Of a stretch of DNA of 64,000 bases, positions 1-20,347 are shown piece by piece. Numbering within the stretch: the stretch's first letter is position 1; every line of letters begins with the position of its first letter. Under the pieces are notes generated by a model. The model was not told the DNA's origin, did no database searches, and saw only the letters and a list, made by a program, of their open reading frames with translations. The stretch is from a virus: positions 1 to 64,000 of IMG/VR virus record IMGVR_UViG_3300049911_000129; one strand, given 5' to 3'. The translations under genes were made by a program, and so were the position numbers.

Positions 1-3000
1 GCCGCGAAGGCGCTCGAGGCGGCCGGCTTCAAGCGGGCGACGTTCGACCCGGAGAGCATGGGCGGGCAGTACCGGGGAGGCACCTACAGGATATACTCGG
101 GCGGCAAGGGCTCGGACTACTTCCACGCGGACATCGCCAGGAGGGGGGCGGACGAGGCCAGGTTCAGGGAGGCGCTCGAGGGGGCGGGCTTCAGGGCGAG
201 GCCGATGGGGTCGGGCTTCCAGGTGGAGGAGTCCAGGAACAGCAAGGCCGACAAGGCCGAGATCATGGAGAGCCCCGTCTACGTCAAGCCGGGCCAGCCG
301 GTGCCGAAGGGGGTCGAGGTGCAGCACGGGCCGCGCGGGGGGACGTTCTACGACCCGCAGGTGAGCCCGTCGCAGGCCGGGCACCGGGTGCACATCCCGA
401 GGGACCTGCGAGACGTGGTCCTGGGCGAGACGCCCGTCTGCGCCTACTGCGGCACGTCGAGGGGGCCGTTCCACGCCGACCACATAGTGCCGGTGAAGGT
501 CGGGGGCAGGAACGTGAGGATCAACCTCCAGCCGGCCTGCGCGGCGTGCAACGAGGCAAGGGGCGCGAAGGACCCGTCCCGCAAGCTGGAGTGGATAAGG
601 TACGGCCAGAAGCAGATGCGCGACATCATGGGCCAGGTGCTGGCCAGGCCGCGCGTCGCGAACATGGTGAAGAAGGTCTGGGGGGACGAGCTGTGGCTGT
701 CCTCCCCGTCGCCGTACGCTTCGGCCCTGCTGAAGGGCGCGAGGCCTATCCACCTCGGCCCGGGCGACCCGGTCCCGGAGGGCGCGAGGGAAGTGCGCGG
801 CCCGAGGGGGGGCAGGTACTACGTTCCGGCCAGGGGGGATGCTGGGTCCGAACATGATAGCCGGGACACCAACAACGTCAAGGAACCGACGCAAGCGGAC
901 ACCGCCGAGTGGGCGAGGCAGGACGACGAGCGGGTGGCGCAGGTAAGGCGCAGGGCGCAGGAGCTGGACGACCTCGTGCAGCGCGTCTGGGTCGGGGACT
1001 GGACGAGGGGCAGGTTCGCCGAGACGGTCGCCGGGCTGCCGGACGACGAGCTCAGCAGCCTCAAGGGCTACGTGATCCCGAGGGCCATGCAGATGGTCGA
1101 GGGCAGGAAGGCCAAGGCCGCGCTCAGGGGCGCCCTCGAGACGGTCGAGAGCGAGCTCGGGTCCAGGGAGAAGTCGCTCATACACGGCACGCCGATCGGG
1201 AACCTTAAGGCCATCCTAAAGGTTGGGCTGCTAACCGACAAGGGAGCGTCCAACTTCAGCCTCTCGGCCCCGGGGGTGGTCTACCTTAGCCCGGAGACGA
1301 GGGACGGCAGGCAGCTGTCGCTCACCGTCGCCGCCGCGGCCGCCCTGGTGCACGGGGAGGACAGCTTCGCCGTGCTGCGCATCAGGATGCCGCGCAGGGG
1401 GCTCGAGACCGACCCGAAGTCCTTCGCCAGCGGCGGGATGCTCACGAAGCACGACGTGCCGCCGACTGCGGTCGTGGGCTACGAGGTCTACGACGCCAGG
1501 GACCTCAAGCAGATGTACGAGGACGCGGTCGCGGAGAGGGACGCCCTGTGCTCGCAGCACAACGACGACCCGAAGTACTGCGGGGACGGCCCGTGGGTCA
1601 GCCTCTTCGTCAACCGGTTCGACGACTACGTGCAGGAGAGGGGGATGCCCGAGCCGGTCCGCGAGGTCGACCTGACCGGCAGGCGGAAGGCCGCGGCCGG
1701 GGACATCTTCCTGGCCCCCGCGACAGGGGACACGATCAGGACGCTGCTGGGCTGCTTGCGCAACGAGGGCGGCGGAAGCGGCGATCTTGCGCAAGTCGGC
1801 GGGCTACGGAAGCAGGGGTTCACCCATGAGCACGATGGCTGGCCTAGGCACCCGATAGGCGTCAAGTACCACGACAAGTACTTCCAGGAGCACGGCGGGT
1901 GGAAGATCGGCATGCCGTCCGATGAGCCGGATAGCCCGTACGGCGACGAGAGCGCGGAGGACGAGCTCGACCGCAAGGTCGCGGGCTTCATAGAGGAGAT
2001 AGCCGCCGGCAGGTGGGACAAGGGCGCGACCTTCGCCATGGGCGACGACACGCTCAAGGCCCTGTGGCTGCGGCTCGACCTGGACCTCAAGACCGGCCGC
2101 GTCCAGTTCACCCTCGACACCAGGCGCGCGCGGGACCAGCTGAAGGACCAGGTCATGCGCAGGGGTCTGCTCCCGGGCACGCTGTCGGGTGAGTTCTACC
2201 GCGCCAAGAAGGCCGTCACGGACGGCACGGACTGGGCGATGGACAAGCGCGAGGCGCAGAAGGCCAGGCTCGCGGACGACCTCGGCAAGGCGGCGTTCGG
2301 CGGCAAGTCCCAGTTCGACCGCGCGGCGGACGTGGCCATAGCGGAGGCGATCGCCGCCGGGGTGCTGGAGCGGACCGCCCACGCGGGCTACCACCTGTAC
2401 AAGTATGTCAGCTACGCCGCGGTGGAGCCAGACGAGTCGGGCGCACCGTCATCGCCACCACATAGCAGGCCGATTGGCGGCCGGTGGGGGGTCATCCGGT
2501 GGATGATGGACAACAGCGAGGGGAGCGTCGACAAGCAGCGGTGGGTGTTCGAGATGGAGAAGGCGGCGGAGGGCGACAAGACGTACGCCCTGCTCGCCGA
2601 CATGATGCAGCTCAGCAAGACCGGGGCGACCGGGCTGAGGCAGGACCTGAGCGGCCTGTCGTACTGGCTGCACGCTGGCGGCGAGACGGCGATGTCCGAG
2701 ACGCTCGGCGCGGCCGCTGCTGGCATGATAGTGAAGACGTGGGCCAGGTCCGCTTCTGACCACCAGCCGCTCAGCATAGCCGTGCAGAAGGCGGCCGCCG
2801 CGGAGTTCGGCATGGCGACCGACATAGACGAGTGGACGGGGGTCGCCGCGAGGGACGAGGCGAGGGCGTTCCTGAAGGCGCACGGCGACGAGCTGAGGGG
2901 GTTCACCAGGAAGGTCTACGACCACACCCAGAGGTTCCTCAAGAAGCGCGGGGTGGAGGAGCTGACGCTGGCGCGCGGGTGGGGATGGGACCCGCACGAA

Positions 3001-5622
3001 ACGCCCGAGTGGTTCGTCGACATGGTCCGCGAGGTGCGGCACGACGCGTACTGGAACGGGGAGCCGCCCGCCAAGCCCCTGGGCGTCAGGAAGGCCGTAC
3101 AGCTCAACCCGATGTCGTCCTTCTCGACCGAGTACGAGCAGGCGCAGGCGTTCGCCACCGGGAGGAACGGGATCGTGACCATGGCGAGGGTGCCGATCTC
3201 GAGGGTCCTGTCCACGTTCATGACGGGCTTCGGGTGCGCGACCGAGAACGAGGTCATCGTCCTCGGGGGCGAGCTCGACGCGGTCCACCTCGCCGGAAGC
3301 TCGGAGTCGCTCCCCAAGGACCCGGACGACGCTGAGGACGTGCTGGCGGAGGGCGGGCTGAGGATAGGTGACGCGCAGGAGTGGCCGCCGCAGTCGCCGC
3401 TCTTCAACGCCGCTGAGGGCCCGCAGGCGGTCCCGCTGGACGCGGACGCGTACGACTGGCCCAAGCGGACCAGGGACTACGATCTGCATCAGGGCGATGC
3501 GAATGATAGTATCGCGGGGCTCGATAAGCACCTTCCCGGCCGGCACGACCAGGAGGACCACGGGAACGAGCACAGGCTGTCCGACGCGCACCCGGCGCTG
3601 GGCAAGATGACGGTCGGCTACGGGGGCGATAAGAGGGCGGCCACGGCGAAGGACTGGGAGAAGTACGAGGGGGAGGCCAAGACCAGGGTCGAGGAGTGGG
3701 CGGCCGGCGGCAAGTACGACAGGAAGATGGAGCCGGACGAGATCTGCTACGAGGGTTACCGGCTGAGGGCGAGCGCGAGGGGGAGGAGCGACGCCTGGAG
3801 CTGGGCGCTCTGGGAGGCCGTGCAGAGGTTCGCCGCGTCGAGGGGCTTCTCGTACATGGACGAGGTGACGGAGGACGACGTCTTCGCCGACCCGAGGATG
3901 CCGGAGCCCGAGAGCATCATAGACGACGACAAGGTCAGGGAGCGGTGGCAGGTGGCCGCGCACACGGCCGACAGCAGGCTGACGGACTACCGCAACTCCA
4001 ACAGCGCGAAGACGCTGCTCGACTTCATCAGGACGGAGAGCGGGGGGATGTGGCAGAGGCATTGCCAGCGCGACCTCTGGAACCTGGCCCGCGGGGCGGG
4101 GGGAGAGACGGTCCCGGTCGGCAAGAGGGGGTTCGGCGCCGAGAGGCACTTCGAGGAGTACAGGCCGTTCGCGGAGCCGGGCGGGCTCAAGGGCGCCAAG
4201 ACCTGGGAGGAGGCGCTGGACGCGGAGTTCACGGTCTACCGCGGCGTGGTCAAGGGGGACGAGGCGGAGAACGCCAGGCGCAAGCCGGTCGTCTCGTACA
4301 CGACCTCGCCCGAGATAGCCAGGCTCTTCGCCGAGGGATACTACCACAGCTACAACGTGCCGGGTCAGGGCAAGGTCTACCAGAGGACCTGCAGGCTGCG
4401 CGACGTGCTCAGCTACCTCAACCCGGACGGCGAGCTCGAGGTCCTGCTGAAGCCGCCGGGGAGCAAGGCCGAGAAGGCCTACGGCGGGTATTATACGAAT
4501 GGCGGGATCGCGTTCACGCACGAACATGGCGGGTTGCCGCGGCATCCTGCTGTCCTGAAGGACCACGCGGTTCTGGACAAGCGGTCGGGTGGCCGCGGGG
4601 GGAAGGTCTTCCTGGGCCCGGGCGAGAAGGCTCCGGAGGGCGTGGAGGTGCACGAGGGTCCGCGCGGCGGAAGGTGGTACCAGGGCGGCAAGGCCAAGGA
4701 GCCGGAGCCTGAGCCGAAGAGATCCACCACGTCGAGGCGCGTGCTGGAGGGCAAGACCCCGGAGCGGACGGAACTGGAGGGCGAGACGACCTTCGCGCAG
4801 GCCGGGCTGAGGGGAGGCATCTGGGGTTCGCAGACGGCCATCGCCGAGTGCAAGCCGGGCGTGCTTCCACACGTCGACGGGTTGTCAGACACGAGGCTCC
4901 TGCACAAGATGGTCCCGCAGGACGCTATAACCGAGTTCACGGTGTTCAGGGTCTTCGAGGCGCTCAGGCCGGGCTTCTGCCCGCCGGTCATGCTGGACGA
5001 CCTTCCCGAAAAGGACGACGTGGTGGACTCGTACTACTCGGATCGCCCGAAGGGGCACTCCATGAGGTGGGTGGACGAGGCCGGATTCGGCGGGACAGCC
5101 ATGACGTATGCGCAGTACCTGGCGCACCACGAGGGTCATGACGCCATGACCCCGGCGCAGGCCATGGACGCGGGGTTCATGAACACGGTTGACTGGCTGG
5201 TCTCCAACCAGGACAGGCACACCGGCAACATCATAATCGACGGCGACCGGCTCTGGCCGATCGACCACGGCATATGCTCCGTCGAGTCGATACCCTCCGG
5301 CAACTACGGCGTGGACTACTCGTTCAAGAGCCACCTCAAGGGGCCGAAGACGCTGCGCGCGTTCAGGGACTCGGCGCTCGCCGCGCTCAAGCAGATATAC
5401 GACGACGCGGACGAGGTCGCGTGGGTCATGGTGAGCAGGGGCGATACGCAGAAGAGCGAACGGGTGAAGGGTGTGGATCTCCTCCCGAAGAGTGCGGAGG
5501 TGATGGCCAGGTCGCTCAGGGCCGCGACCGGCAGGGCGGCGGAAGACCTGAACAGGTGGTACAGGGACGAGCTTAAGTACAGGAGGGAGATGCGCCAGGA
5601 GCGGGAGGCTAGGCGGCGATGA
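1..5622 (+). CDS. Giant multi-effector (polyvalent) head-region protein, 5'-partial: HNH, three ART-like domains, HipA/PI3-4K-like kinase, 3 copies of the GxRGG motif
   Basis: Frame is open from base 1 (AAKALEAAGF...). Motifs: CAYC..DHIVP..NLQPACAACN (HNH); HGT..NL..IL..GL..VYLS; RG..SSFST..A..FA..ENEVIVL; VYRG..SYTTS..A..FA..ELEVLL; NQDRHTGN..IDHG. Confidence 0.8.
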   Translation, partial: AAKALEAAGFKRATFDPESMGGQYRGGTYRIYSGGKGSDYFHADIARRGADEARFREALEGAGFRARPMGSGFQVEESRNSKADKAEIMESPVYVKPGQPVPKGVEVQHGPRGGTFYDPQVSPSQAGHRVHIPRDLRDVVLGETPVCAYCGTSRGPFHADHIVPVKVGGRNVRINLQPACAACNEARGAKDPSRKLEWIRYGQKQMRDIMGQVLARPRVANMVKKVWGDELWLSSPSPYASALLKGARPIHLGPGDPVPEGAREVRGPRGGRYYVPARGDAGSEHDSRDTNNVKEPTQADTAEWARQDDERVAQVRRRAQELDDLVQRVWVGDWTRGRFAETVAGLPDDELSSLKGYVIPRAMQMVEGRKAKAALRGALETVESELGSREKSLIHGTPIGNLKAILKVGLLTDKGASNFSLSAPGVVYLSPETRDGRQLSLTVAAAAALVHGEDSFAVLRIRMPRRGLETDPKSFASGGMLTKHDVPPTAVVGYEVYDARDLKQMYEDAVAERDALCSQHNDDPKYCGDGPWVSLFVNRFDDYVQERGMPEPVREVDLTGRRKAAAGDIFLAPATGDTIRTLLGCLRNEGGGSGDLAQVGGLRKQGFTHEHDGWPRHPIGVKYHDKYFQEHGGWKIGMPSDEPDSPYGDESAEDELDRKVAGFIEEIAAGRWDKGATFAMGDDTLKALWLRLDLDLKTGRVQFTLDTRRARDQLKDQVMRRGLLPGTLSGEFYRAKKAVTDGTDWAMDKREAQKARLADDLGKAAFGGKSQFDRAADVAIAEAIAAGVLERTAHAGYHLYKYVSYAAVEPDESGAPSSPPHSRPIGGRWGVIRWMMDNSEGSVDKQRWVFEMEKAAEGDKTYALLADMMQLSKTGATGLRQDLSGLSYWLHAGGETAMSETLGAAAAGMIVKTWARSASDHQPLSIAVQKAAAAEFGMATDIDEWTGVAARDEARAFLKAHGDELRGFTRKVYDHTQRFLKKRGVEELTLARGWGWDPHETPEWFVDMVREVRHDAYWNGEPPAKPLGVRKAVQLNPMSSFSTEYEQAQAFATGRNGIVTMARVPISRVLSTFMTGFGCATENEVIVLGGELDAVHLAGSSESLPKDPDDAEDVLAEGGLRIGDAQEWPPQSPLFNAAEGPQAVPLDADAYDWPKRTRDYDLHQGDANDSIAGLDKHLPGRHDQEDHGNEHRLSDAHPALGKMTVGYGGDKRAATAKDWEKYEGEAKTRVEEWAAGGKYDRKMEPDEICYEGYRLRASARGRSDAWSWALWEAVQRFAASRGFSYMDEVTEDDVFADPRMPEPESIIDDDKVRERWQVAAHTADSRLTDYRNSNSAKTLLDFIRTESGGMWQRHCQRDLWNLARGAGGETVPVGKRGFGAERHFEEYRPFAEPGGLKGAKTWEEALDAEFTVYRGVVKGDEAENARRKPVVSYTTSPEIARLFAEGYYHSYNVPGQGKVYQRTCRLRDVLSYLNPDGELEVLLKPPGSKAEKAYGGYYTNGGIAFTHEHGGLPRHPAVLKDHAVLDKRSGGRGGKVFLGPGEKAPEGVEVHEGPRGGRWYQGGKAKEPEPEPKRSTTSRRVLEGKTPERTELEGETTFAQAGLRGGIWGSQTAIAECKPGVLPHVDGLSDTRLLHKMVPQDAITEFTVFRVFEALRPGFCPPVMLDDLPEKDDVVDSYYSDRPKGHSMRWVDEAGFGGTAMTYAQYLAHHEGHDAMTPAQAMDAGFMNTVDWLVSNQDRHTGNIIIDGDRLWPIDHGICSVESIPSGNYGVDYSFKSHLKGPKTLRAFRDSALAALKQIYDDADEVAWVMVSRGDTQKSERVKGVDLLPKSAEVMARSLRAATGRAAEDLNRWYRDELKYRREMRQEREARRR
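274..351 (+). repeat. Protein motif copy 1 (PVYVKPGQPVPKGVEVQHGPRGGTFY)
   Basis: Read from the translation; follows SKADK-A. Confidence 0.85.
733..822 (+). repeat. Protein motif copy 2 (KGARPIHLGPGDPVPEGAREVRGPRGGRYY)
   Basis: Read from the translation; follows LLK. Confidence 0.85.
4579..4680 (+). repeat. Protein motif copy 3 (KRSGGRGGKVFLGPGEKAPEGVEVHEGPRGGRWY)
   Basis: Read from the translation; follows LDK. Confidence 0.9.
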
Positions 5623-6686
5623 GAGCGGTAGTGTATGCCCTGAAGGACGGCCGGCTGGAGCAGGTCGCGGAGGTGTTCGTGGACGGGCAGGTCAAGGGCC
5701 CGTTCGCCGGCGAGATCCGCGCGTGGATAGGGCACCATGGGTTGGACGGCGAGAAGATGCTGAGGGTCCTGGCCAGGCGGTGGACGACCGGCTACACGGC
5801 GGTCGAGCTGCTGGACGGAGACAGCAAGGAGGACAAGAGGTCCGGAGGCCGGGGCGGGAGGACGTACCTCGGGCCGAAGGAGGAGGCCCCTGCGGGAGTC
5901 GAGGTGCACCAGGGGACGAGGGGCGGGCGGTGGTACGAGGGCGGCAAGAAGGATCCGACCAAGGACTGGAAGATCCACCAGGACTACCCCAAGAGGGAGC
6001 CGAACCCGTACGAGGACTACGCGGTGAAGCCGAAGACGCACGAGGAGATCTTCGACCAGAAGTGGCACACCGAGCGGCTGGGCCAGTGGAAGAGCTTGGT
6101 CGAGGGGGTTGTCCTCGGCCTGCCGTTCGAGCACGCGGAGCTGGTGTCGGACGTGACCGTCACGAAGTACGGCAACAACGGGATAAGCGGGACCTTCGAG
6201 TCGGCGCTGGCCGGGGCGTTCGGCGTCCGGGTGCCGCGCGGGAGGATACTGCTGCGGTTCAAGGGCGCCCCGTTCAATGACACATTCCTTATGGAGACGG
6301 TCGCGCACGAGGTCGGGCACGCGGCGTGCAGGCTCGTCTTCTTCAGCGGGACGGACCACGACACGGAGCTCAAGAAGCGGGTCCTCAGGGCCTACCACAC
6401 CGCCTACAGGGCGGCCGGCAACGAGGCGCTGACGGAGATACACCACAGGCGCTACTTCGCCCCGGCCGCGGTAGCCGGCGCGAGGCAGGCCAGGGCCGTG
6501 TCGCCGTACTCGCTCAAGAACCCGGACGAGTTCTTCGCCGAGCACTACGCCTGGTACCGGATGCACCCGACGTCGCTGCAGGCGCTAAACGAGGAGATGT
6601 ACTCCATCATGAAGGGCGTGTACGGCGGGAGGGAGAACTTCGAGGTGCACCCGCAGGGCGGGCTGAAGAGGGGGCGATATGGATAG
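5619..6686 (+). CDS. Zincin metallopeptidase (lethal-factor/MPTase-like) carrying the GxRGG motif
   Basis: HEVGH (HExxH) at 6306-6320 and downstream SPYSLKNPDEFFAE motif. Start overlaps the upstream stop (ATGA). Confidence 0.75.
   Translation: MRAVVYALKDGRLEQVAEVFVDGQVKGPFAGEIRAWIGHHGLDGEKMLRVLARRWTTGYTAVELLDGDSKEDKRSGGRGGRTYLGPKEEAPAGVEVHQGTRGGRWYEGGKKDPTKDWKIHQDYPKREPNPYEDYAVKPKTHEEIFDQKWHTERLGQWKSLVEGVVLGLPFEHAELVSDVTVTKYGNNGISGTFESALAGAFGVRVPRGRILLRFKGAPFNDTFLMETVAHEVGHAACRLVFFSGTDHDTELKKRVLRAYHTAYRAAGNEALTEIHHRRYFAPAAVAGARQARAVSPYSLKNPDEFFAEHYAWYRMHPTSLQALNEEMYSIMKGVYGGRENFEVHPQGGLKRGRYG
5835..5936 (+). repeat. Protein motif copy 4 (KRSGGRGGRTYLGPKEEAPAGVEVHQGTRGGRWY)
   Basis: Read from the translation. 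Confidence 0.9.
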
Positions 6687-10182: not shown

Positions 10183-13100
10183 ATGAGGATAGACAAGTCG
10201 GTCGCGCACGACTGGTCGACCGTCCTGATAGACACGGTCCCGCAGGGGTCCGTGTCCGAGTACGGCCGAGTCAGGATCCTGTACAAGCAGGGGGGGCTGG
10301 CGGAGGACTACGAGCTGGTCATCGCCGGCTACGCGTCGCCGCAGGTCGTGGACCGCGAGAAGCACCTGATCACCAAGGAGGCCATGCAGGCCGACCTGCC
10401 GAGGTTCCTGGCGCACCCGCACTACCGGAACGCCATGATCGTCCACTCCAATATACAGGTCGGGGAGGTGCTCCCGACGTGGACCAACCCAGAGACTAAG
10501 GAGGAGTTCGCGACCAAGGTGGACGACCTCGGGCTCTTCTGCGTCATAAAGCTGCGGACCGACAAGTACCGCCCGGAGATCTGCTCCAAGGTCGAGAAGG
10601 ACGTGCGCGAGGGCAAGCTCGCGTCGTTCAGCATCTCCGGGGACGCCCCGTTCGACAGCAGGCGCCACGTCTGCAGCAGCGGGACGTGCTTCTGGATCAT
10701 CGACAAGATAGAGTTCTACGAGATAACTATCTGCGAGCAGGGCGTGAACCAGGACGCCAAGTTCGCGGTCCTGAGCAAGGCGGCGCACTGCGAGGACGGC
10801 TCGTGCGCGCTGCAGCTCCCGACGCCGTTGACCAGGTCCGCGCTTGCGTCTGCCATCTCCAAGGGCCGGACATACCTCGCACCAGGCGAGGACGCACCGG
10901 AGGGTGTGAACGTCGAACAGGGTCCGAGGGGTGGGCGCTACTACGAGGGCGGGGAAGAGGGCGGAATCGAGCCCGAGGGACTGGAGTGGCGCAACCTACA
11001 TCGGACAGGCGACACGGTGCAGGCCGAGGTAAAGGTGCGCGGCGTCGAGGGCGAGAGTCTGATGGTGCACCAGGAGAAGCGCCCGGCGGGACGCCGTTAC
11101 TGGGGCATGGGCGCCGAGACGTCAGGCTGGTCCGCCGGAAGGCCAGGGTCCTGGCACACGGGGATGACAAATATCAAGACCGCCAAGGAAATGGTTAAGG
11201 CGGCACCGCTGATTCAGGAGGCCGTCAACAAGCATCCGGGGGCGAACAGCGTGCGCGTGAGGGTCGAGCAGCAGGAAAACGGGTTGCTCAAGGTCTCGGA
11301 GTACGACCGCAATAAGTGGACCGAGCTCGTCGGTTCGCAGGCTAAGCCTGGAGCGGAGCCGACACAGGAGGGAGGCGGAAGTCCACTATCCTCCGAGGTC
11401 CACGATCTGGCGGTCAAGCTCGGTCGGCACGCCGCCGAGGCGGGCTGGACGCGCGAGGAGGCGCTGCAGTGGGCGCAAGGCGTGGCGGTCGACAACCGCG
11501 TCAAGGCGAGCGACGTCATGGCAGTAGCGGCCAAGGAGTGGGCCAGGGCGAGCACGGAGGCCAGGAAGCCGGCCAAGGCGCCGACGCGGTTCAACCAGCG
11601 CGGCCAGTCGGACCACGGCAACGTGACGGAGTTCGATGACGAGGAGCTCGAGCCGTTCGAGCTGATGCAGAAGATAAACGAGATCGACGATCCGGCGGTC
11701 GTGGCGGCGTCCGAGAAGGTCATGGTGGACAAGCTCGCCGAGGAGATATACATCGGCGCGCACGCCTCCGGCAGCTTCCAGAGCGCGGCGCGGAAGGTGG
11801 AGCAGAAGTACGGCCGGTTCGGCATGCCCGACGAGTACCTGGACGCGGCGGCGGATCAGGCGCGAAAGCGGAAGACCAAGCCGGAGCGCCAGCAGTGGCC
11901 GAGGCGCGGCGCGAGGCCGCAGGACGTCTTCGGGCTGCCGAGGCGCGGGTACGGGAAGTTCGGGAAGGCGGCGGTCGGCGGAGCGGGCGGCGCGATAACG
12001 CCGATCACGCCGATGCAGGGACCGGAGGCGGCCAAGGACCCGTCGAAGGCCGACATCGTGGGCGAGAAGGCGGGCGGCTCGGCGATGGGCCACGGCAGCG
12101 TGGGGGCGGTTGCGAAGGAGGGCCCGAGCGGTCCGGATAGCCCGCTGACCGAGGGCGAGGTCACGGTCGCGGAGGACTTCGCGGCGAGGATGTGGGAGAG
12201 CATGGGGCGGCCCCACGACTTCGGGCAGTTCAGGCGTGGCCTGGGCGTCGAGTGGGAGCACGCAGACGTCCTGGGCGGGGACTGGCTGAAGGTCGCGCAG
12301 GTCGTGCTGGACCACCTGGCGGAGGATGAGGCGTACTACACCAAGCTGGCGACCATCGAGAAGGGCATGGGCGTGCTTGGCCGGGCGGTTGCCAGGGCTA
12401 TCGAGAAGAGGTCGGGCGGGCGCGGCGGGCGCGTCTACCTGAAGCCCGACGAGAAGGCGCCGGAGGGCGTGGAGGTCCAGACGGGCCCGAGCGGCGGTCG
12501 CTACTATGACAGGAAGGGCGGTGGCGAGAAGCCGAAGGAGTCCGAGGCCGGGGAGAAGCCGCGCACGGGCGAGGGGAAGGGACCGGAGGGATCTGGTGTC
12601 GGTGGTGTCCCGCCGAAGGTTCAGAAGAAGATAGACATAATGAAGGGCAACCTCGAGGACTACGTCTATCGTCTCAAGCACGCCAACGAGAGGCGCGTGG
12701 AGATGGGCAACGAGTATTGGCACGAGCCGAAGTCATACGCCGCCAGGCAGGCGCACAAGGACATCGCGGAGTATCAGCGGAGGGTGTACGACCTGCAGAC
12801 TAAGCTGGAGGATTGGGAGGGCCTGACCGCTGCTCCTGATGACGTGGCGAGGGCCATCGAGAAGGGCGCACACTTCCAGAGGAGCCACTGGCACGCCAGC
12901 AAGATGGTTCGTGGGTACAGTTCGCGCTCGACCGGCTACGAGGTCGAGCCGCATAAGGGTCAGCTGCAGGTTAGATACTACATGGGCAACAGCGACTGGC
13001 GCAAGGAGGTGAGCCTCAAGCGGCTGGGTACCATGAAGGAGGCGCTCGAGGACGCCGGATATAACGTCAAGATGGAGGAGGACTACCTGGTGGTCGGTTC

Positions 13101-15453
13101 GGGCGGCAGGATCAAGAAGGCCGGGTTCGCCGGAGGCGGCGGGGCGGACGTGGGGAGCGGCTGGGCCGTGGAGGTACACGACCCGACGACGGCAGGCAAG
13201 AAGGGCGGCGTGATGAGCGACAGGAAGTTCGACGGGGTGGCCGAGCCGCACAGCCCGGGGCTGGTCGTGTCTCCGCCCGCGGGTCCGCTCGAGCAGAAGT
13301 GCCAGCACGGGTTCGAGAAGGGCGACCAGACGTGGGGCCCGGGAGACTTCGATTGGGCCGGGGACCAGGACGACGACGGGGATGTGGACGCGGACGACGA
13401 CGCGGTCGGGGCCGAGAAGGAGGACCGCGCGCAGATAGGCCAGGTCGCGAGGATCCCGCCGGTCCCGCAGATACGCAGGCCGAAGGCGCCGAAGCCGGCC
13501 GGGGTGACGTACAAGGCCGCGATTGACCCTAGCGAGACCACGCAGTTCAGTCCGACGTACGCGCGGGATGACGCGGCGGGCGGCGAGGAGTCCGAGGAGT
13601 ACTACCTGAACAAGCGATGCCCGCTGTGCGCGGCGCGCGACATCATAGAGGACGCGCTGGACGACCGGGGGATCTATGGCGCCATGTCCGAGGAGTTCCG
13701 CGGCGTGCTCAGGCACAGCCTCGCGGTCCTGCAGGCCGGGACGGGCGGGCTTGACTGGGTGCAGGGCGGAGGCTTCGTGGCCTTGTCCGACGACCACGCG
13801 TACGCCGGCTTCACGAGGCCCGGCTATGCGATCCCGATCGCGGGCGTCGCGGCGGCGATAGGCATGGCGGCGTTCGACCTGGGCGACGTGCGGATGGTCC
13901 GCAAGGCTGTAAAGGTCGGCAACCTGATACTCGAGACGCATCCGGTGGAGGAGCGCGAGTTCGCAGAGGGTCTGGCCGACATTCAGGAGAGGATGGCGCG
14001 CGAGCTCAACATCCAGATGGAGGGGGCCGAGGGAGGCCAGGAGCTGCGCAAGGGCTACCACGTCGGCTGGCTCGGGGACGCGCAGAGGACGCTGGAGAGC
14101 GTGAGGGCCGCGCTCGGCGGGATCAACCGGGACGCCATAGGCGACGAGCTCAAGGTCGCGTTGGACGCCATATCGGCGGACATGGACCACCTGGTTGGCT
14201 CGATCGGCGTGACGGAGCAGATGAAGGGCCAGGTGAAGGGCGTCGAGCCGGCCGCGCTGGACGTGGTGCGGACGGTCGCGAAGGACACCGAGGGCGACGT
14301 CAAGGCGGCCGACAGCGCGCTCGAGGTCGTGGACCCGGAGCGCATAGAGGCGAGGGCCGACGGCGAGAAGGACGAGATGAGCGACCCCGACCAGGTCGCG
14401 CACCCCTCCGAGGTGGCGGTGATGACAGGCGCGCCTCCGGGCGTCCCGACCGGCAACCAGGGCGCGAGCGTGGTGCACAGGGGCGAGGACGTCAAGTTCG
14501 GCGACTTCATAACGAGCAGGCTGCACAGGGTCTACTCCCAGACGGCCGACGACGTGATGGCGCTCGGGCACTTCGAGGACGACGTCGAGCGCAAGAAGGT
14601 CGGGGAGGCTATAGGCGAGGCATTGACCACGTTCAAGGAGGCGCTGACCAGGGACGGGCTGTTCGACCTGGTGCTGCCGTCCGAGGACGCCGAGCGGCTG
14701 CTCAAGGCGGTGATGCCTCCGCCGCGCGGGATAGCGAAGACCGACGAGGACTCGGACCTTTGGGGTGGGCAGAACAGGGGAGCCGGGGTCAGTCCGCTCG
14801 GTCCGACGACCGAGGCGCTGGACACGCTCGATCAGGGCCAGCACCCGGCGTACGGGTACAACAGGGACACCAAGCCGGAGGGGCTGACGAAGGACGTGGG
14901 TGCGCCGACCGCCGGCATGCCAGAGGCCGACGTGGCAGTGAACAGGGGCGTGGCGGTTGACAAGGAGCCGGAGGATCCGCTGGCGGTGGAGGCGTTCGAG
15001 ATGGAGCCGAGCGCGCCGAGGCAGCCAGACCCGGACTCCACGGCCGGGCATGTCGAGGAGAAGGACACGGGAGCGCGTAACGACCGATTCGTGGGCGAGC
15101 CGGATAGGGTGAGCAACAGCCGCCTGAGGAAGGATCCTGCGACCGACGAGCCGATGAACGTCAAGGGCGCCGGGGTCGGCAGGCGCAGCCAGTTCGAGGA
15201 CCAGGGTCCGCCGGGCGAGGTCGAGAGTCCGCAGCCGGTTCGCGAGCGCGAGTATGACAACAGGGGCGCACTGGTGCCGCAGTTGAACATGGGCGCGGAG
15301 GACGCGAAGGCGCTGTTCAAGCTCCACGCGTCGCTCTGGTCGCGGTACGTGAGCGACCCGCGGTTCGGGTTGGCCGTCATCGAGCTGGACGACGGGGGCA
15401 ACCCGGTGCAGATAGTGGACATAGCGAAGAGGACCGGCCATGGGCGCAGATAA
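10183..15453 (+). CDS. HK97-type prohead (capsid maturation) protease fused to a ~1550-aa mosaic extension (2 GxRGG motifs, DUF5661-like domain)
   Basis: IAGYAS..VD..MIVHSN.QVG..GKLASFSISG..EITICEQGVN..AKF at ~10309-10779. GVEWEH..DHLAE..YYTKL at ~12220-12363 matches the DUF5661 pattern. Confidence 0.85.
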   Translation: MRIDKSVAHDWSTVLIDTVPQGSVSEYGRVRILYKQGGLAEDYELVIAGYASPQVVDREKHLITKEAMQADLPRFLAHPHYRNAMIVHSNIQVGEVLPTWTNPETKEEFATKVDDLGLFCVIKLRTDKYRPEICSKVEKDVREGKLASFSISGDAPFDSRRHVCSSGTCFWIIDKIEFYEITICEQGVNQDAKFAVLSKAAHCEDGSCALQLPTPLTRSALASAISKGRTYLAPGEDAPEGVNVEQGPRGGRYYEGGEEGGIEPEGLEWRNLHRTGDTVQAEVKVRGVEGESLMVHQEKRPAGRRYWGMGAETSGWSAGRPGSWHTGMTNIKTAKEMVKAAPLIQEAVNKHPGANSVRVRVEQQENGLLKVSEYDRNKWTELVGSQAKPGAEPTQEGGGSPLSSEVHDLAVKLGRHAAEAGWTREEALQWAQGVAVDNRVKASDVMAVAAKEWARASTEARKPAKAPTRFNQRGQSDHGNVTEFDDEELEPFELMQKINEIDDPAVVAASEKVMVDKLAEEIYIGAHASGSFQSAARKVEQKYGRFGMPDEYLDAAADQARKRKTKPERQQWPRRGARPQDVFGLPRRGYGKFGKAAVGGAGGAITPITPMQGPEAAKDPSKADIVGEKAGGSAMGHGSVGAVAKEGPSGPDSPLTEGEVTVAEDFAARMWESMGRPHDFGQFRRGLGVEWEHADVLGGDWLKVAQVVLDHLAEDEAYYTKLATIEKGMGVLGRAVARAIEKRSGGRGGRVYLKPDEKAPEGVEVQTGPSGGRYYDRKGGGEKPKESEAGEKPRTGEGKGPEGSGVGGVPPKVQKKIDIMKGNLEDYVYRLKHANERRVEMGNEYWHEPKSYAARQAHKDIAEYQRRVYDLQTKLEDWEGLTAAPDDVARAIEKGAHFQRSHWHASKMVRGYSSRSTGYEVEPHKGQLQVRYYMGNSDWRKEVSLKRLGTMKEALEDAGYNVKMEEDYLVVGSGGRIKKAGFAGGGGADVGSGWAVEVHDPTTAGKKGGVMSDRKFDGVAEPHSPGLVVSPPAGPLEQKCQHGFEKGDQTWGPGDFDWAGDQDDDGDVDADDDAVGAEKEDRAQIGQVARIPPVPQIRRPKAPKPAGVTYKAAIDPSETTQFSPTYARDDAAGGEESEEYYLNKRCPLCAARDIIEDALDDRGIYGAMSEEFRGVLRHSLAVLQAGTGGLDWVQGGGFVALSDDHAYAGFTRPGYAIPIAGVAAAIGMAAFDLGDVRMVRKAVKVGNLILETHPVEEREFAEGLADIQERMARELNIQMEGAEGGQELRKGYHVGWLGDAQRTLESVRAALGGINRDAIGDELKVALDAISADMDHLVGSIGVTEQMKGQVKGVEPAALDVVRTVAKDTEGDVKAADSALEVVDPERIEARADGEKDEMSDPDQVAHPSEVAVMTGAPPGVPTGNQGASVVHRGEDVKFGDFITSRLHRVYSQTADDVMALGHFEDDVERKKVGEAIGEALTTFKEALTRDGLFDLVLPSEDAERLLKAVMPPPRGIAKTDEDSDLWGGQNRGAGVSPLGPTTEALDTLDQGQHPAYGYNRDTKPEGLTKDVGAPTAGMPEADVAVNRGVAVDKEPEDPLAVEAFEMEPSAPRQPDPDSTAGHVEEKDTGARNDRFVGEPDRVSNSRLRKDPATDEPMNVKGAGVGRRSQFEDQGPPGEVESPQPVREREYDNRGALVPQLNMGAEDAKALFKLHASLWSRYVSDPRFGLAVIELDDGGNPVQIVDIAKRTGHGRR
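10861..10944 (+). repeat. Protein motif copy 7 (KGRTYLAPGEDAPEGVNVEQGPRGGRYY)
   Basis: Read from the translation; follows ISK. Confidence 0.9.
12406..12507 (+). repeat. Protein motif copy 8 (KRSGGRGGRVYLKPDEKAPEGVEVQTGPSGGRYY)
   Basis: Read from the translation; follows IEK. Confidence 0.9.
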
Positions 15454-15780: not shown

Positions 15781-16128
15781 GTGGCTTCCGGGACGTACCA
15801 GCTCGAGCTGACGGTTGCCGACGCGTGGGCGATCCAGCAGAGCATCAAGCATGACATGATTGTCAGGCTGTGGAGCGGGCAGGAGGAGCCGGCCGGACAG
15901 TCGCTGCGTCAGAAGGTCAATGGGCTGATCGTGCAGTTCGTCGACGAGAGCGCCGGGCCCGAGTCGTCGGCGGTGATCAACGCGACAGAGGAAGAGCTCT
16001 GGCTTATCGACAAGCAGCTGCCGCTGTCGTACGCGGGGGCGAGGGAGCTGCTCGTCAGGGTGTTCAGGGGACTGCTGGCGCTGGCCGCCGACGGCATATG
16101 GGGCGATCAGAGGCAGGAGGTTTCGTAA
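15781..16128 (+). CDS. Hypothetical protein
   Basis: GGAGG RBS and tight packing. Confidence 0.6.
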   Translation: MASGTYQLELTVADAWAIQQSIKHDMIVRLWSGQEEPAGQSLRQKVNGLIVQFVDESAGPESSAVINATEEELWLIDKQLPLSYAGARELLVRVFRGLLALAADGIWGDQRQEVS

Positions 16129-16175
16129 ACCGCGCGGCGTGCGATACAATTGCGTTGCGCTAACAGATTCGGGCC

Positions 16176-16511
16176 ATGCGCCCGCAGGAGGACGGAATGA
16201 AGGGTAACGAAGGGCAGATCGACTACTGCATACTGTGCGACGGTGTGCAGGGGCCGGACCATGTGCACATCTGCGCCTACTGCGGCGCGGTGGTAGATCC
16301 CGCCCACCTGCGCTCGGTCGGCAACGACGAGGAGCCGAGGCGGGTCTACTGTGGCCCCTATTGCCACATCATGGCTGAGCCCGATGGCGAGCACGCGCGG
16401 GGCATCCCGGCGGACAAGAAGGACAAGATGGTGCGGCGCGAAGAGCTGCTGCATGCACAGAAGGTGCTGAAGCGCCAGTGCATCGAGGAGGGCGTACCGT
16501 GGATCCACTAA
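16176..16511 (+). CDS. Cys-rich (Zn-binding) hypothetical protein
   Basis: CILC, CAYC and YCGPYC motifs. Confidence 0.55.
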   Translation: MRPQEDGMKGNEGQIDYCILCDGVQGPDHVHICAYCGAVVDPAHLRSVGNDEEPRRVYCGPYCHIMAEPDGEHARGIPADKKDKMVRREELLHAQKVLKRQCIEEGVPWIH

Positions 16512-17065
16512 ACGAGGGAGTCGGAGCGACCGACAGGCTGGGCATCATGGCCGGCGTGTGCGAGGCGATAACCCGGCGGACGTCCTGGCGGCTCGAGAAG
16601 CGCCACGGCGACGGCGCCACGTACGAGGGCGGCATCGAGGCCTTCAAGCGCGACGTCGACCCGTACGAGGTGCTCGAGTTCGAGGGCAACCTGCTGACCA
16701 ACGTCGGCGGCGGGGCCATCTGGGACCTCGTGACCGGCGCGGGCGTGGTCACCGCGTTCGACAACGGCAACGCCTACCTGGGCGTCGGCGACTCGGCGAC
16801 GGCGGCGGACCCGGCGCAGACGGACCTGCAGGCGGGCGGCAACAAGGTCAGGGTGGCCATGAACGCCACGTACCCGCAGTTCACGGACGGGGTGATCATC
16901 TTCCAGGCCGACTTCACCGGCGCGGTGGCCACGTGGACCTGGGCCGAGGTCGCGACGTTCAACGCTGCGGCCGCGGGCGAGATGCTGAACCGCAAGGTCC
17001 AGGCGCTCGGAGTCAAGGGAGCCGGCGCGACTTGGACGCTGACGGAGACCATAACCCTGTCGTAA
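16478..17065 (+). CDS. Virion structural protein (tail-fibre/baseplate-associated type)
   Basis: NLLTNVG..AYLGVGDS.TAA...QTDL..EVATFNA..GEMLNR pattern seen in phage structural proteins. Start uncertain. Confidence 0.6.
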   Translation: MHRGGRTVDPLNEGVGATDRLGIMAGVCEAITRRTSWRLEKRHGDGATYEGGIEAFKRDVDPYEVLEFEGNLLTNVGGGAIWDLVTGAGVVTAFDNGNAYLGVGDSATAADPAQTDLQAGGNKVRVAMNATYPQFTDGVIIFQADFTGAVATWTWAEVATFNAAAAGEMLNRKVQALGVKGAGATWTLTETITLS

Positions 17066-17138
17066 GCAACGCCGGCCGGCACGACCCGGGGTCACCCGGG
17101 CACGGCCGGGATCCCGGCGGGCTAAGGCCTGTAGACTC

Positions 17139-17189: not shown

Positions 17190-19157
17190 ATGGTAGACGT
17201 TCCTGTTGCCGACGGCGTCCAGCTGGACGACGGCATAAACCCGTACTGGGACGTCTTCAGGTGGACGGAGCTCGGGGTCTCGAGCTTGGCCAATGCGCTC
17301 GGGTACCCAGGCGGGGTCCCGGTCATCGTCAAGGACGAGCCCGGCGCCGCGGGGATCTTCGTCGCCTACCAGACAGGCACGAAGGGCGCGGGTGGTCTTG
17401 TCTACCAGCAGAGCGACGACCGCGGCGGGACGTGGCTCGGCGAGGTAGTGATCGACGTGGATATAGATAAGCTCGCGGCGGCGGTCATCGACCCTATCTC
17501 GTACGACATCCACCTGATCTACTTCCAGATCGGCGAGCCGACGCTGAGCACGGCGTCGAACCTCTGGTACAGGGTCCTGGCGTGGAGCGGCGGCGTGTGG
17601 GTGATAGGCGCCGAGAAGCAGATCATACTCGCCAGCGCCTCGCACGGCTACAGCAACGCGTCGCTGGAGGTCAGGTCCGGGTACCTGATGGCGATGCTAT
17701 ACGACAAGACATCGACCACCGTGCGGAACCTGTACAGCGCGAAGGCTGCCGGCACGTGGGACCTGTTCACGAACGTCAACCTCGACGTCGAGCAGGTCAT
17801 GATCCCGAGCACGGCGGTTCATGTTGACCTGACGCGCGACAACGTGGGCGACAAGTGGTACATCACCACCGAGCAGGGTGGCACGTTCACCATCTGGAGC
17901 CCGTCGGAGACGCTGCGGCCGCCTGGCGAGATAACGCCCGTCAACCTCGCGTCCTGGTATGGGGCGACGACGGAGCAGTTCGACACGGTCTACAACCCGT
18001 CGACAGCCATGGTCGGCATCGTCCAGGAGAATGGCGGCGCGCTGCAGTTCCGGACCTTCGACCCGGCGACGAGCCTGGTGAGCGCGCCGACGGTCATAGA
18101 GGCAAGCGGGGCGTTCTGGCCCTGCATCACGGTCGACCAGGGCGGGCGGTTCGTCGTGGCGTACACCAAGACGGCGTCGGGCGACGGGCGCCACCTGATG
18201 GTCGTGCGATCGGACGACTGGACGGCAACGCACGCGCTGGCGACAGACAGCGGGGTCGAGGGTTGGGGCGGGACCCACATTGCGAGGATCAGCACAGGCG
18301 TCGACGGGTTGGTCATAGCGTGGTGCGAGACCATAGACGGGGACGCTGACGGCGAGTACAAGGTGTTCTGCGGGGTCCTCGACCAGCAGGTGTTCAAGGC
18401 CGTGGCGGAGTCGGTCGACGCGCTCGAGTTCATAACGTCGGTGCACGGCCTGGCGGACGCCGCCGCGTTCGTGGAGCTGCTGCACGCGTCGGAGCCGAAG
18501 AGCGCCACCGATGCCGCGGCGCTGGTCGAAGCGCTGGCGACCTGGCAGAACGTGGCTGAGGCGGCGGCGATCGCGGAGGCATTCCTGGTCAACTACCGGG
18601 TGACCGAGGGGATCTCTTTCACGGACATATTCCGGCTTAAGATGCCGGTCTCTGACACGGGAACGGCCACCGACATCTTCAGCTTCGTGTGGAAGATAGT
18701 CGTCAGCGACGTCATCGCGGCGACCGACGCGGTCGCCCGCCTGAAGGTGGCGATGGCTGACGCGATGTCGGCCGATGACCAGCTGGCGCCGTTCGGACTC
18801 TCGGTCGCCGAGGCGATCGCGGTCGGGGACGCCGAGGTCATATGGGTCGAGGTGGCCGAGACGGCTGCGGCGGGGGACATGCCCGTCATATGCCATACGA
18901 TCCTGGATGGGGCGTCCGTCGACGAGATCATCGACATGACGTACGGGATCATAGAGTCGGCGGTCGCATCCGAAGGGGTCTGGATGAACGGCGGCGTCAT
19001 CGAGTCGGTGACGGCGACTGACGCGGTACTCAGGATGGAGGTGCACTCGGACAGCACCATTCAAGCCGCCGACAGTTGGGCTAAGCTGATTGTCATCCGC
19101 ATAGGGGTCCGCCTGCACCTGCACAGTGGGCAGGCGCGGCTCCGGATGGAGAGATAG
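17190..19157 (+). CDS. Virion protein with Asp-box beta-propeller-like N-terminus and C-terminal short acidic repeats
   Basis: SDDRGGTW Asp-box; C-terminal [AV]xD/Ex3[AT]D/E-type repeats. Confidence 0.6.
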   Translation: MVDVPVADGVQLDDGINPYWDVFRWTELGVSSLANALGYPGGVPVIVKDEPGAAGIFVAYQTGTKGAGGLVYQQSDDRGGTWLGEVVIDVDIDKLAAAVIDPISYDIHLIYFQIGEPTLSTASNLWYRVLAWSGGVWVIGAEKQIILASASHGYSNASLEVRSGYLMAMLYDKTSTTVRNLYSAKAAGTWDLFTNVNLDVEQVMIPSTAVHVDLTRDNVGDKWYITTEQGGTFTIWSPSETLRPPGEITPVNLASWYGATTEQFDTVYNPSTAMVGIVQENGGALQFRTFDPATSLVSAPTVIEASGAFWPCITVDQGGRFVVAYTKTASGDGRHLMVVRSDDWTATHALATDSGVEGWGGTHIARISTGVDGLVIAWCETIDGDADGEYKVFCGVLDQQVFKAVAESVDALEFITSVHGLADAAAFVELLHASEPKSATDAAALVEALATWQNVAEAAAIAEAFLVNYRVTEGISFTDIFRLKMPVSDTGTATDIFSFVWKIVVSDVIAATDAVARLKVAMADAMSADDQLAPFGLSVAEAIAVGDAEVIWVEVAETAAAGDMPVICHTILDGASVDEIIDMTYGIIESAVASEGVWMNGGVIESVTATDAVLRMEVHSDSTIQAADSWAKLIVIRIGVRLHLHSGQARLRMER

Positions 19158-19388: not shown

Positions 19389-19598
19389 GTGTGGCGCGGG
19401 CTGAGGAGCAGGCTGCTGCGCAGGCTCGATAGGGACGCGATCGAGTACACCGGATCGACGCTGGTCGGCCACGTCATACTCGCGTGTGATCAGTGCGGCG
19501 CGCTTGTGGACTACCTCGAGCAGTCGGCAAAGGAGCCGTTCGGGTGGTTGTGCGGGCCATGCAAGGCTAGGGAGCAGGAGTGCCAGGAGACGACGTAG
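19389..19598 (+). CDS. Small Zn-finger-like protein
   Basis: CDQC...CGPC. Confidence 0.45.
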   Translation: MWRGLRSRLLRRLDRDAIEYTGSTLVGHVILACDQCGALVDYLEQSAKEPFGWLCGPCKAREQECQETT

Positions 19599-20347
19599 TA
19601 GACATCAGCGGCTGGGGCGGCGAACTCGACGTAGAGACCGTCCGCTGCTGGGCCAGGCAGGGGAAGCGGAAGGTCGTCGTCGGCGTGGGGCCGGATGTCG
19701 CGCTGGCGCGCAGACAGATGCTGGCGGTGCTCGCCGGCGGCCTGCTTCTGGAGGTGTACGTCTACCCGTACTACGAGGCCGACCCGGCGCGCTACCTCGA
19801 CCGCGTGGACGCGGCGACGGCTGGGCTGCAGGTCGGCTTCAGGTGGCTGGACTTCGAGGACACGGAGACGCTGCCTGGCGGGTACTCGTGGCAGTCGCTA
19901 GTGGTCCTGTGGGTCCACCAGTGCATGGGCGAGGCCACGGCGAGGTGGGGCGCAGAGAACATAGGCCTATACACCGGGGCGTGGTGGTGGCGGGAGTACA
20001 CCGACGACAGCGTGGATCTCGCCGGCTGGCCGCTGTGGGCCGCGGACTACGACCACGAGGCGAACGCGTCGTTCACGCCGTTCGGCGGCTGGATGGCATG
20101 TAGGCTGAAGCAGTACAGCGGGACCACCGAGCTCTGCAGGTTCTCGGTGGACCTGGACTTCGAGGGGGGATACGAGATGGACGTGGAGACGGAGAAGCAG
20201 CTGAAGCGGAGCATGGCGTTCCAGCGCTGGGGCGCGTTGATCACGACCGGGGAGGACGCCCAGGTCGAGCAGGCCCTGCGCGAGCTGATATACGTCAGGC
20301 TGCTTGCGGGCCTGCCGGCGATCCCGCCGGTGCCGGAGGACAAGTAG
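19580..20347 (+). CDS. Endolysin, GH25 muramidase
   Basis: VDISGW, WLDFED (DxE), GLYTGAWWW, PLWAADY, KQYS, VDLD. Confidence 0.85.
   Translation: MPGDDVVDISGWGGELDVETVRCWARQGKRKVVVGVGPDVALARRQMLAVLAGGLLLEVYVYPYYEADPARYLDRVDAATAGLQVGFRWLDFEDTETLPGGYSWQSLVVLWVHQCMGEATARWGAENIGLYTGAWWWREYTDDSVDLAGWPLWAADYDHEANASFTPFGGWMACRLKQYSGTTELCRFSVDLDFEGGYEMDVETEKQLKRSMAFQRWGALITTGEDAQVEQALRELIYVRLLAGLPAIPPVPEDK

Follow-up and report, generated by a model that had tools for sequence, protein, structure and literature searches.

The DNA considered here, called the window, is the first 64 kb (64,000 nucleotides (nt)) of a 99,994-bp viral contig in IMG/VR (record IMGVR_UViG_3300049911_000129) and starts at contig base 1; the contig is estimated to be 79% complete and has a G+C content of about 67%. 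At its beginning lies a giant open reading frame (ORF), designated P0001, in which an HNH endonuclease domain, three ADP-ribosyltransferase (ART)-type domains and a kinase-like domain occupy one uninterrupted frame. The three ART-type domains have their signature residues intact and stand on one polypeptide in a late-gene neighbourhood. A sequence-only reading of this DNA had claimed that a single protein combines three ART-like domains belonging to two classes, and this claim stands, with good evidence for the second and third domains (segments 2 and 3) and moderate evidence for the first (segment 1). All the motifs that it listed are present, in frame and correctly placed within one ORF, and they are more than a product of chance, since they coincide with positions conserved across real domain families. 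The domains themselves are larger than the spans first described, which correspond to catalytic cores. In the following, motif positions are window nucleotides and residue numbers are counted from the ATG at nt 58.

1..5622, + strand: giant ORF P0001, amino acids (aa) 1-1854 from the ATG at nt 58, with the stop at nt 5622
1150..1527, + strand: segment 1, probable H-type ART-fold domain, aa 365-490 (hhalign to KptA, ESM clusters)
2692..3297, + strand: segment 2, predicted DRAT-like R-S-ExE ART module, aa 879-1080 (Pfam DRAT, residue conservation)
3637..4482, + strand: segment 3, predicted second R-S-ExE ART module, aa 1194-1475 (family conservation, structural model, hhalign)

The P0001 protein has a length of at least 1854 aa, and an ortholog, P0002, is 72-74% identical to it. 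Because the frame, which lacks any internal stop, is open to base 1 and the 19 codons before the ATG read as protein (they contain an ALE[AG]AGF[KR] motif that recurs about 40 residues on), the true N-terminus has probably been lost at the contig end, possibly together with a MuF or portal-linked domain. Inspection of the far end of the contig revealed neither the missing N-terminus nor a portal gene.

Segment 2 is composed of an N-terminal helical part (W895...Q910) followed by a catalytic core, which carries the following elements.

2968-2979 (LARG), 3115-3129 (SSFST) and 3244-3255 (ENEV), + strand: segment 2 motifs, all in frame
2974-2976 (R973), 3115-3120 (S1020/S1021), 3244-3246 (E1063) and 3250-3252 (E1065), + strand: segment 2 predicted catalytic residues

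Taken alone, this segment scores 26.3-26.5 bits with the Pfam DRAT model (PF07357), for which the cut-off is 25, and the model is also matched by 13 of 26 short relatives (best E 6e-15). Over 243 domain copies from 131 proteins, R973 is retained by 197 of the 198 aligned copies, S1020/S1021 by 163-173 of about 205, E1063 by 201 of 207 and E1065 by 206 of 207. The signature of the R-S-E clade is complete (R973, S1020-S-F-S1023 and E1063-N-E1065), and there is good evidence, drawn from sequence, that segment 2 is a DRAT-like R-S-ExE ART. Where segment 2 and half of its short relatives align with DraT, the match falls on the part of the model that holds the Ser and ExE residues. In segment 2, however, the match is confined to profile positions 192-252, the last ~60 of 256; its N-terminal helical region (W...Q...TQ) differs, there is neither a DraG partner nor a nitrogenase context, and a single phage protein can contain as many as 11 copies of the module.

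Segment 3 represents a second family, which has at least 20 members, some of them stand-alone proteins of 270-330 aa. Its layout is as follows.

4219-4482, + strand: segment 3 ART core, aa ~1388-1475, preceded by a helical N-part
4234-4245 (VYRG), 4294-4308 (SYTTS) and 4432-4443 (ELEV), + strand: segment 3 motifs, all in frame
4240-4242 (R1395), 4294-4296 (S1413), 4432-4434 (E1459) and 4438-4440 (E1461), + strand: segment 3 predicted catalytic residues

No match to this segment was obtained among the curated models of Pfam, NCBIfam and PHROG or among PDB sequences. R1395, S1413, E1459 and E1461 are invariant in 20 of 20 relatives, and an AlphaFold2 model built from a 12-sequence alignment (predicted local distance difference test (pLDDT) 90, predicted template modelling score 0.87) has a helical N-part and then a five-strand core holding these four residues, with the R, S-x-T and E-x-E elements located on model strands 197-204, 219-222 and 268-271. 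All structures that align to the C-terminal half of the model are ARTs, with weak Foldseek E-values, and in BFVD the model recovers mostly unnamed phage proteins. Profile-profile comparison by hhalign links the segment 3 family to that of segment 2 with a probability of 94.8% and E 4.9e-8. In this alignment RG, S-x-T/S and ExE line up in register. The accessory helical regions of the two segments show no kinship. Because the invariant residues, the model, the ART-only structural matches and the profile link to segment 2 come together, there is good evidence that P0001 has, in segment 3, another R-S-ExE ART distinct from the first. The R-S-E class that had been proposed for segments 2 and 3 is thus upheld by the Pfam DRAT match, the invariant triads, the high-scoring model and the profile-profile link. 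Structure prediction followed by Foldseek had been named as one check for each segment; in the segment 3 model the triad lies on strands, and the segment 1 model reached a pLDDT of 62. In neither case did Foldseek against PDB give a match at E <= 0.001.

A resemblance to the T4 proteins Alt, ModA and ModB (Alt/VIP2 clade) had also been pointed out. It holds at the level of the R-S-E clade, which these proteins have in common with segments 2 and 3, and does not reach the family level: PF03496 (ADPrib_exo_Tox) gave no match at E <= 10 for either segment or in the relatives scanned, and segment 2 is nearest to DraT. When compared by hhalign with a PF03496-positive domain (P0087 aa 826-916), the segment 2 family gave E 0.008 and the segment 3 family E 0.25. 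T4 Alt, which is packaged in the head, injected and modifies host RNA polymerase and other proteins, offers a functional model for segments 2 and 3, although it is a single-ART protein. Among R-S-E ARTs, the ExE form is associated with arginine as the acceptor; DraT, Alt and the cholera-type toxins are examples. Arginine modification is predicted for segment 2 because it has the same R-S-ExE set as DraT. By analogy, segments 2 and 3 would most likely use nicotinamide adenine dinucleotide (NAD+) to ADP-ribosylate host proteins on their arginine side chains, and the two may act on different host proteins.

Segment 1 belongs to a family of four members, P0001, P0006, P0153 and the more distant P0087, and displays a different set of conserved elements.

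1180-1191 (IHGT), 1276-1290 (VVYLS), 1405-1416 (ETDP) and from 1432 (GGMLT..VPP), + strand: segment 1 motifs
1183-1191 (H376-G-T378), 1282-1284 (Y409) and 1411-1413 (D452), + strand: segment 1 key residues, with M461 at the position of the Tpt1 'h'

All four members share H376, T378, Y409 and D452 without exception, and H376-G-T378 is kept as H-[GSA]-T. A search for relatives of stand-alone length found none, one for longer proteins found P0153 only, and neither viral contigs nor genome contigs yielded any; metagenome contigs provided one locus, whose match to the query equals that of P0006 (49% identity and an identical E). The four-member alignment was compared by hhalign with one of E. coli KptA and eight phage KptA homologs (n=9), giving a probability of 62% and E 7.4e-5 over 84 columns. 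The 62%, the silence of Pfam, NCBIfam and PHROG models on segment 1, and profiles that are shallow because the family has only four members would all suit the view that P0001 has two ARTs only and that segment 1 is an unrelated alpha/beta domain in which a Tpt1-like pattern arose by convergence or chance. The alignment itself argues otherwise, as it spans the whole NAD+ lobe of KptA in register, pairing HGT with HGT, VVYLS with YVHLS, FAVLRI with PVILKI and GGMLTKHDVPP with NGVWLTxxVPP. Its score of 33.9 compares with 12.1 +/- 2.1 (maximum 17.6) in 60 column shuffles, which places it more than 10 standard deviations above them, and the reversed query scored 10.2.

The structural evidence on segment 1 likewise points in both directions. 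The AlphaFold model, built from three sequences, is poor and leaves the His-motif region disordered, as would be expected if the domain were unrelated to ARTs. The structural matches of this weak model are nevertheless ART toxins exclusively at the top of the ranking, both among the 5 best of 48,161 chains and among the 23 best VIA matches. For two family members (P0001 segment 1 and the P0087 domain), the closest named ESM clusters are H-type ARTs throughout, comprising Arr-ms (23 of 30), PARP/DarT and Tox-ART-HYD1, and are regarded as leads only. On balance, the unrelated-domain explanation is considered unlikely. The H-type ART fold originally proposed for segment 1 is retained at moderate strength, on the likeness to the Tpt1/KptA NAD+ lobe and the ART toxins heading the matches of the weak model: sequence and model together make it quite probable that this segment is an H-type ART-fold NAD+-binding domain, whose acceptor is uncertain.

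Three more specific assignments of segment 1 were considered and rejected. In Tpt1, the HGT motif holds the 2'-OH of NAD+, and homology links the NAD+ lobe to ART toxins (PMC6333775). Segment 1 aligns with Tpt1/KptA (PF01885) over the full NAD+ lobe, and has in common with it the HGT motif and a hydrophobic residue, here M461, at the site that the catalytic Glu occupies in most ARTs. Unlike Tpt1, it has no winged-helix RNA lobe with the corresponding Arg-His-Arg residues, and its second signature residue is Tyr instead of His. The RNA lobe is considered missing because a query lengthened by 105 aa upstream scores no higher (33.3 versus 33.9) and reveals no residues of the Arg-His-Arg tetrad. 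Since this lobe is lacking, the second signature residue is Tyr and the PF01885 hidden Markov model (HMM) is silent (no match at E <= 10 when run on the genome), segment 1 is not a complete Tpt1 enzyme; it would at most be a borrowed or diverged Tpt1 NAD+ lobe. Membership in ART-PolyVal (PF18760) was set aside as unproven, as the HMM gave no match on the genome and hhalign against ART-PolyVal references, including P0128 (PF18760 E 3e-25), returned E 0.1-0.3; the lack of a significant match here also suits the unrelated-domain explanation. Arr membership was likewise set aside as unproven, Arr-ms being an ESM lead only.

As for function, segment 1 would probably act on a non-protein acceptor (a nucleic-acid phosphate or a small molecule) or cleave NAD+. 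Many ARTs act as NADases when an acceptor is absent. This behaviour favours a further explanation, according to which at least one of the domains is mainly an NAD+ glycohydrolase or phosphorylase that drains or rewires host NAD+, for example to blunt NAD+-dependent defences. Segment 1 has no Glu, Asp or Gln at the position aligned to the catalytic residue, and it aligns to the H-H-h clade, which has been linked to soluble ADP-ribose products and small-molecule chemistry (PMC9503650). Segments 2 and 3, by contrast, combine a full ExE with large accessory helical regions of the type found in protein ARTs that are specific for their targets, and DraT, the nearest named family, is a strict arginine-specific protein modifier. 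A mainly NAD+-consuming role is accordingly judged quite improbable, and transfer to arginine remains the preferred function for segments 2 and 3.

The distribution of these modules is uneven. A phmmer search with P0001 aa 340-1500 (1161 aa) returned 1751 proteins at E <= 0.001, including 667 at E <= 1e-10. Among the 150 matches listed, most align at aa ~880-1075 (segment 2), about twenty at aa ~1195-1470 (segment 3), several of the latter being stand-alone proteins of 270-330 aa, and P0006 alone covers aa 340-628 (segment 1). The metagenomic protein P0004 (7059 aa) contains 11 copies of the DRAT-like module. The module is combined with MuF, GNAT and ART-PolyVal in P0128, with ART-PolyVal in P0129, and with an ART-PolyVal-like domain and topoisomerase IB in P0107; MuF (in P0003 and P0128), GNAT, HD and topoisomerase IB domains all occur among the fetched relatives. 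By these sequence comparisons, the mixing of H-type and R-S-E domains is not confined to P0001 and is seen in its relatives too. In cultured phages, tblastn detected the segment 2 module only, in Bacillus phages SP-15 and HSE3, where the matching protein is annotated as hypothetical, in addition to HNH matches, and the region had no megablast match among GenBank phages. When PDB sequences were searched with phmmer and profiles, using P0001 and its domains as queries, only HNH matches or noise came back. HMMs of the three domains and the KptA and ART-PolyVal profiles, run on every ORF of the 100-kb contig, revealed no further ART copy.

The ART-type domains are flanked by an HNH domain and a kinase-like domain, and the intervening regions contain repeated linkers and a 25-aa tag.

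439..567, + strand: HNH endonuclease domain, aa 128-170 (Pfam PF01844 E 2e-8, or 3e-9 as a segment)
4735..5619, + strand: C-terminal PI3/PI4-kinase-like domain, aa 1560-1854 (PF00454 E 0.001; TIGR03843, SCO1664 family, E 7.7e-6)
5212-5229 (DRHTGN) and 5260-5271 (IDHG), + strand: kinase-type catalytic motifs of the C-terminal domain
1819-1854 and 4513-4548, + strand: two copies of the His-rich linker FTHEHxGxPRHP, between P0001 domains
3532-3564, + strand: one copy of the His-rich linker LPGxHxQxxHG, between P0001 domains
277..351, + strand: inter-domain tag copy 1 (VYVKPGQPVPKGVEVQHGPRGGTFY)
748..822, + strand: inter-domain tag copy 2 (IHLGPGDPVPEGAREVRGPRGGRYY)
4606..4680, + strand: inter-domain tag copy 3 (VFLGPGEKAPEGVEVHEGPRGGRWY)
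GxRGG cores starting at nt 5913, 7815, 8943 and 10921, + strand: four further tag copies, in three downstream genes
5619-6686, + strand: 355-aa protein with one tag copy (Peptidase_M90 E 0.003, weak)
10183-15453, + strand: 1756-aa protein whose first ~200 aa are prohead-protease-like (phrog_23555 E 2.6e-12; Pfam S78 weak)

The HNH domain is also recognised by PHROG HNH families (down to E 2e-12) and PDB HNH chains (E 7e-5). The PF00454 and TIGR03843 matches of the C-terminus are weak and fall below their cut-offs; the domain they describe amounts to a lipid-kinase-like kinase inside a phage cargo protein. The LPGxHxQxxHG linker occurs 20 times in 14 relatives. The tag has the consensus [VF][YF]LxPGExxPxGVxVxxGxRGGx[YW]Y, ending in GxRGGx[YFW]Y, and is present in seven copies in four adjacent + strand genes, three of the copies lying in P0001 and one of the genes being prohead-protease-like. 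Of 153 fetched relatives, 10 have the tag as well, in some cases at the start of a stand-alone ART protein (P0025), and it may serve as a capsid-targeting or cleavage signal.

P0001 lies upstream of prohead-protease-like, capsid-like and tail-fibre genes, all on the + strand, and the head genes downstream include a major-head-like gene (phrog_24667 E 1.9e-8) besides the prohead-protease-like one. The genes next to P0001 encode tagged multi-domain proteins. The 355-aa tagged protein may, from its sequence, be a zincin of the sort common in polyvalent proteins, and the 1756-aa protease-like protein, which carries one tag copy, also contains a DUF5661 domain (E 6e-9). Collagen-like tail-fibre genes appear twice, at window positions 24943-26655 and at 19407-19994 of the piece covering contig positions 80001-99994, where the gene runs off the 3' end. 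Genes for a DNA methyltransferase (12148-13500 within that piece), an RtcB RNA ligase (15901-17076; phrog_1075, E 4e-117) and a glycosyltransferase (17376-19079) also lie there, at the far end of the contig. Together, RtcB and the Tpt1-lobe-like domain are a hint that this phage engages in RNA-end chemistry.

Polyvalent proteins, as described by Iyer, Burroughs, Anand, de Souza and Aravind in 2017 (PMC5512222), resemble P0001 in being very large, in joining nuclease, ART and kinase domains, and in being encoded among late structural genes, with ARTs sometimes in many copies. ARTs are their commonest protein-modifying domains, and polyvalent proteins are predicted to be packaged in the head and injected (PMC5512222, PMC9503650). 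P0001 likewise combines at least two unrelated effector domains in one polypeptide with linkage to late or virion genes. The interpretation favoured here, with somewhat better than even confidence, is that P0001 is a phage polyvalent effector, a single polypeptide of unrelated enzyme domains encoded at the start of a head-morphogenesis module. In the 2017 survey, the ARTs of polyvalent proteins were H-Y-D ART-PolyVal (PF18760) domains, and R-S-E Alt/VIP2 ARTs were stated to be absent from polyvalent proteins proper (PMC5512222), whereas P0001 has two R-S-ExE domains and an H-type domain that is Tpt1-lobe-like and not ART-PolyVal. A 2022 survey recorded Alt/VIP2 and N4-type ARTs fused to MuF. 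ART-rich polyvalent effectors are already known, and what is new here is the domain types, namely a DRAT-like R-S-ExE domain, an R-S-ExE family for which no model exists, and a Tpt1-lobe-like H-type domain.

According to this interpretation, which draws on the position in the head module and the polyvalent-protein literature, P0001 would be packed in the capsid, possibly cut at the repeated 25-aa tags, and, whole or cut, would enter the host with the DNA and act before phage gene expression. Joint delivery of several modifiers or NADases with distinct targets, which the sequence-only reading had put forward, would rest on the same grounds. T4 Alt is known to be packaged and injected. Several considerations weigh against the interpretation. 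The head-gene calls near P0001 are weak PHROG/Pfam matches (E 1e-8 to 1e-12). Within P0001, whose N-terminus may be cut by the contig end, PF04233 (Phage_Mu_F) gave no match, and no portal-binding domain, MuF or zincin was seen. Neither megablast nor tblastn found a close P0001 homolog in cultured phages, the phage is known from a metagenomic contig alone, and both packaging and activity are inferred.

The inferential nature of packaging and the lack of a detectable MuF domain in this copy are also compatible with an alternative in which the ARTs are real and P0001 is not injected, acting instead late in the producing cell or being released at lysis against competitors as a MuF-type polymorphic toxin, an interpretation that has been given to MuF-linked toxins of temperate phages (PMC5576092). 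Against this alternative, no immunity-like small gene is evident directly downstream of P0001, where the next genes encode tagged multi-domain proteins, and P0001 itself is positioned among late structural genes. Moreover, the tag is common to P0001 and the prohead-protease fusion protein and therefore points to the capsid interior, and T4 Alt provides a precedent for a head-packaged ART (PMC5512222). A late-acting or lysis-released toxin is thus thought improbable, and a head-packaged polyvalent effector remains the preferred interpretation. A bolder version, which is very unlikely to be correct, would make segment 1 an RNA-lobe-free, Tpt1-derived lobe that ADP-ribosylates a small-molecule immune signal or a phosphate of nucleic acid, be it the host's or the phage's, and P0001 a tagged 'polyprotein' kit cut by the prohead protease. 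Cleavage in the capsid would then liberate an HNH nuclease, an H-type ART, two Arg-specific ARTs and a lipid-kinase-like kinase and, if true, would amount to a pre-made host-takeover kit injected with the DNA.

Head-packaged ARTs, with T4 Alt as the example, are the classic case of host reprogramming before phage genes are read. Two of the three ART domain families described here are overlooked by current annotation pipelines because curated models for them are missing. Each of these two families offers a compact and tractable enzyme candidate, the stand-alone segment 3 homologs (270-330 aa) among them, and the Tpt1-like lobe of segment 1 is a candidate enzyme for ADP-ribosylating targets other than proteins in conflicts between phage and host. 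Together, these observations suggest that R-S-ExE ARTs may be widespread building blocks of polyvalent cargo proteins, often standing beside H-type ARTs.

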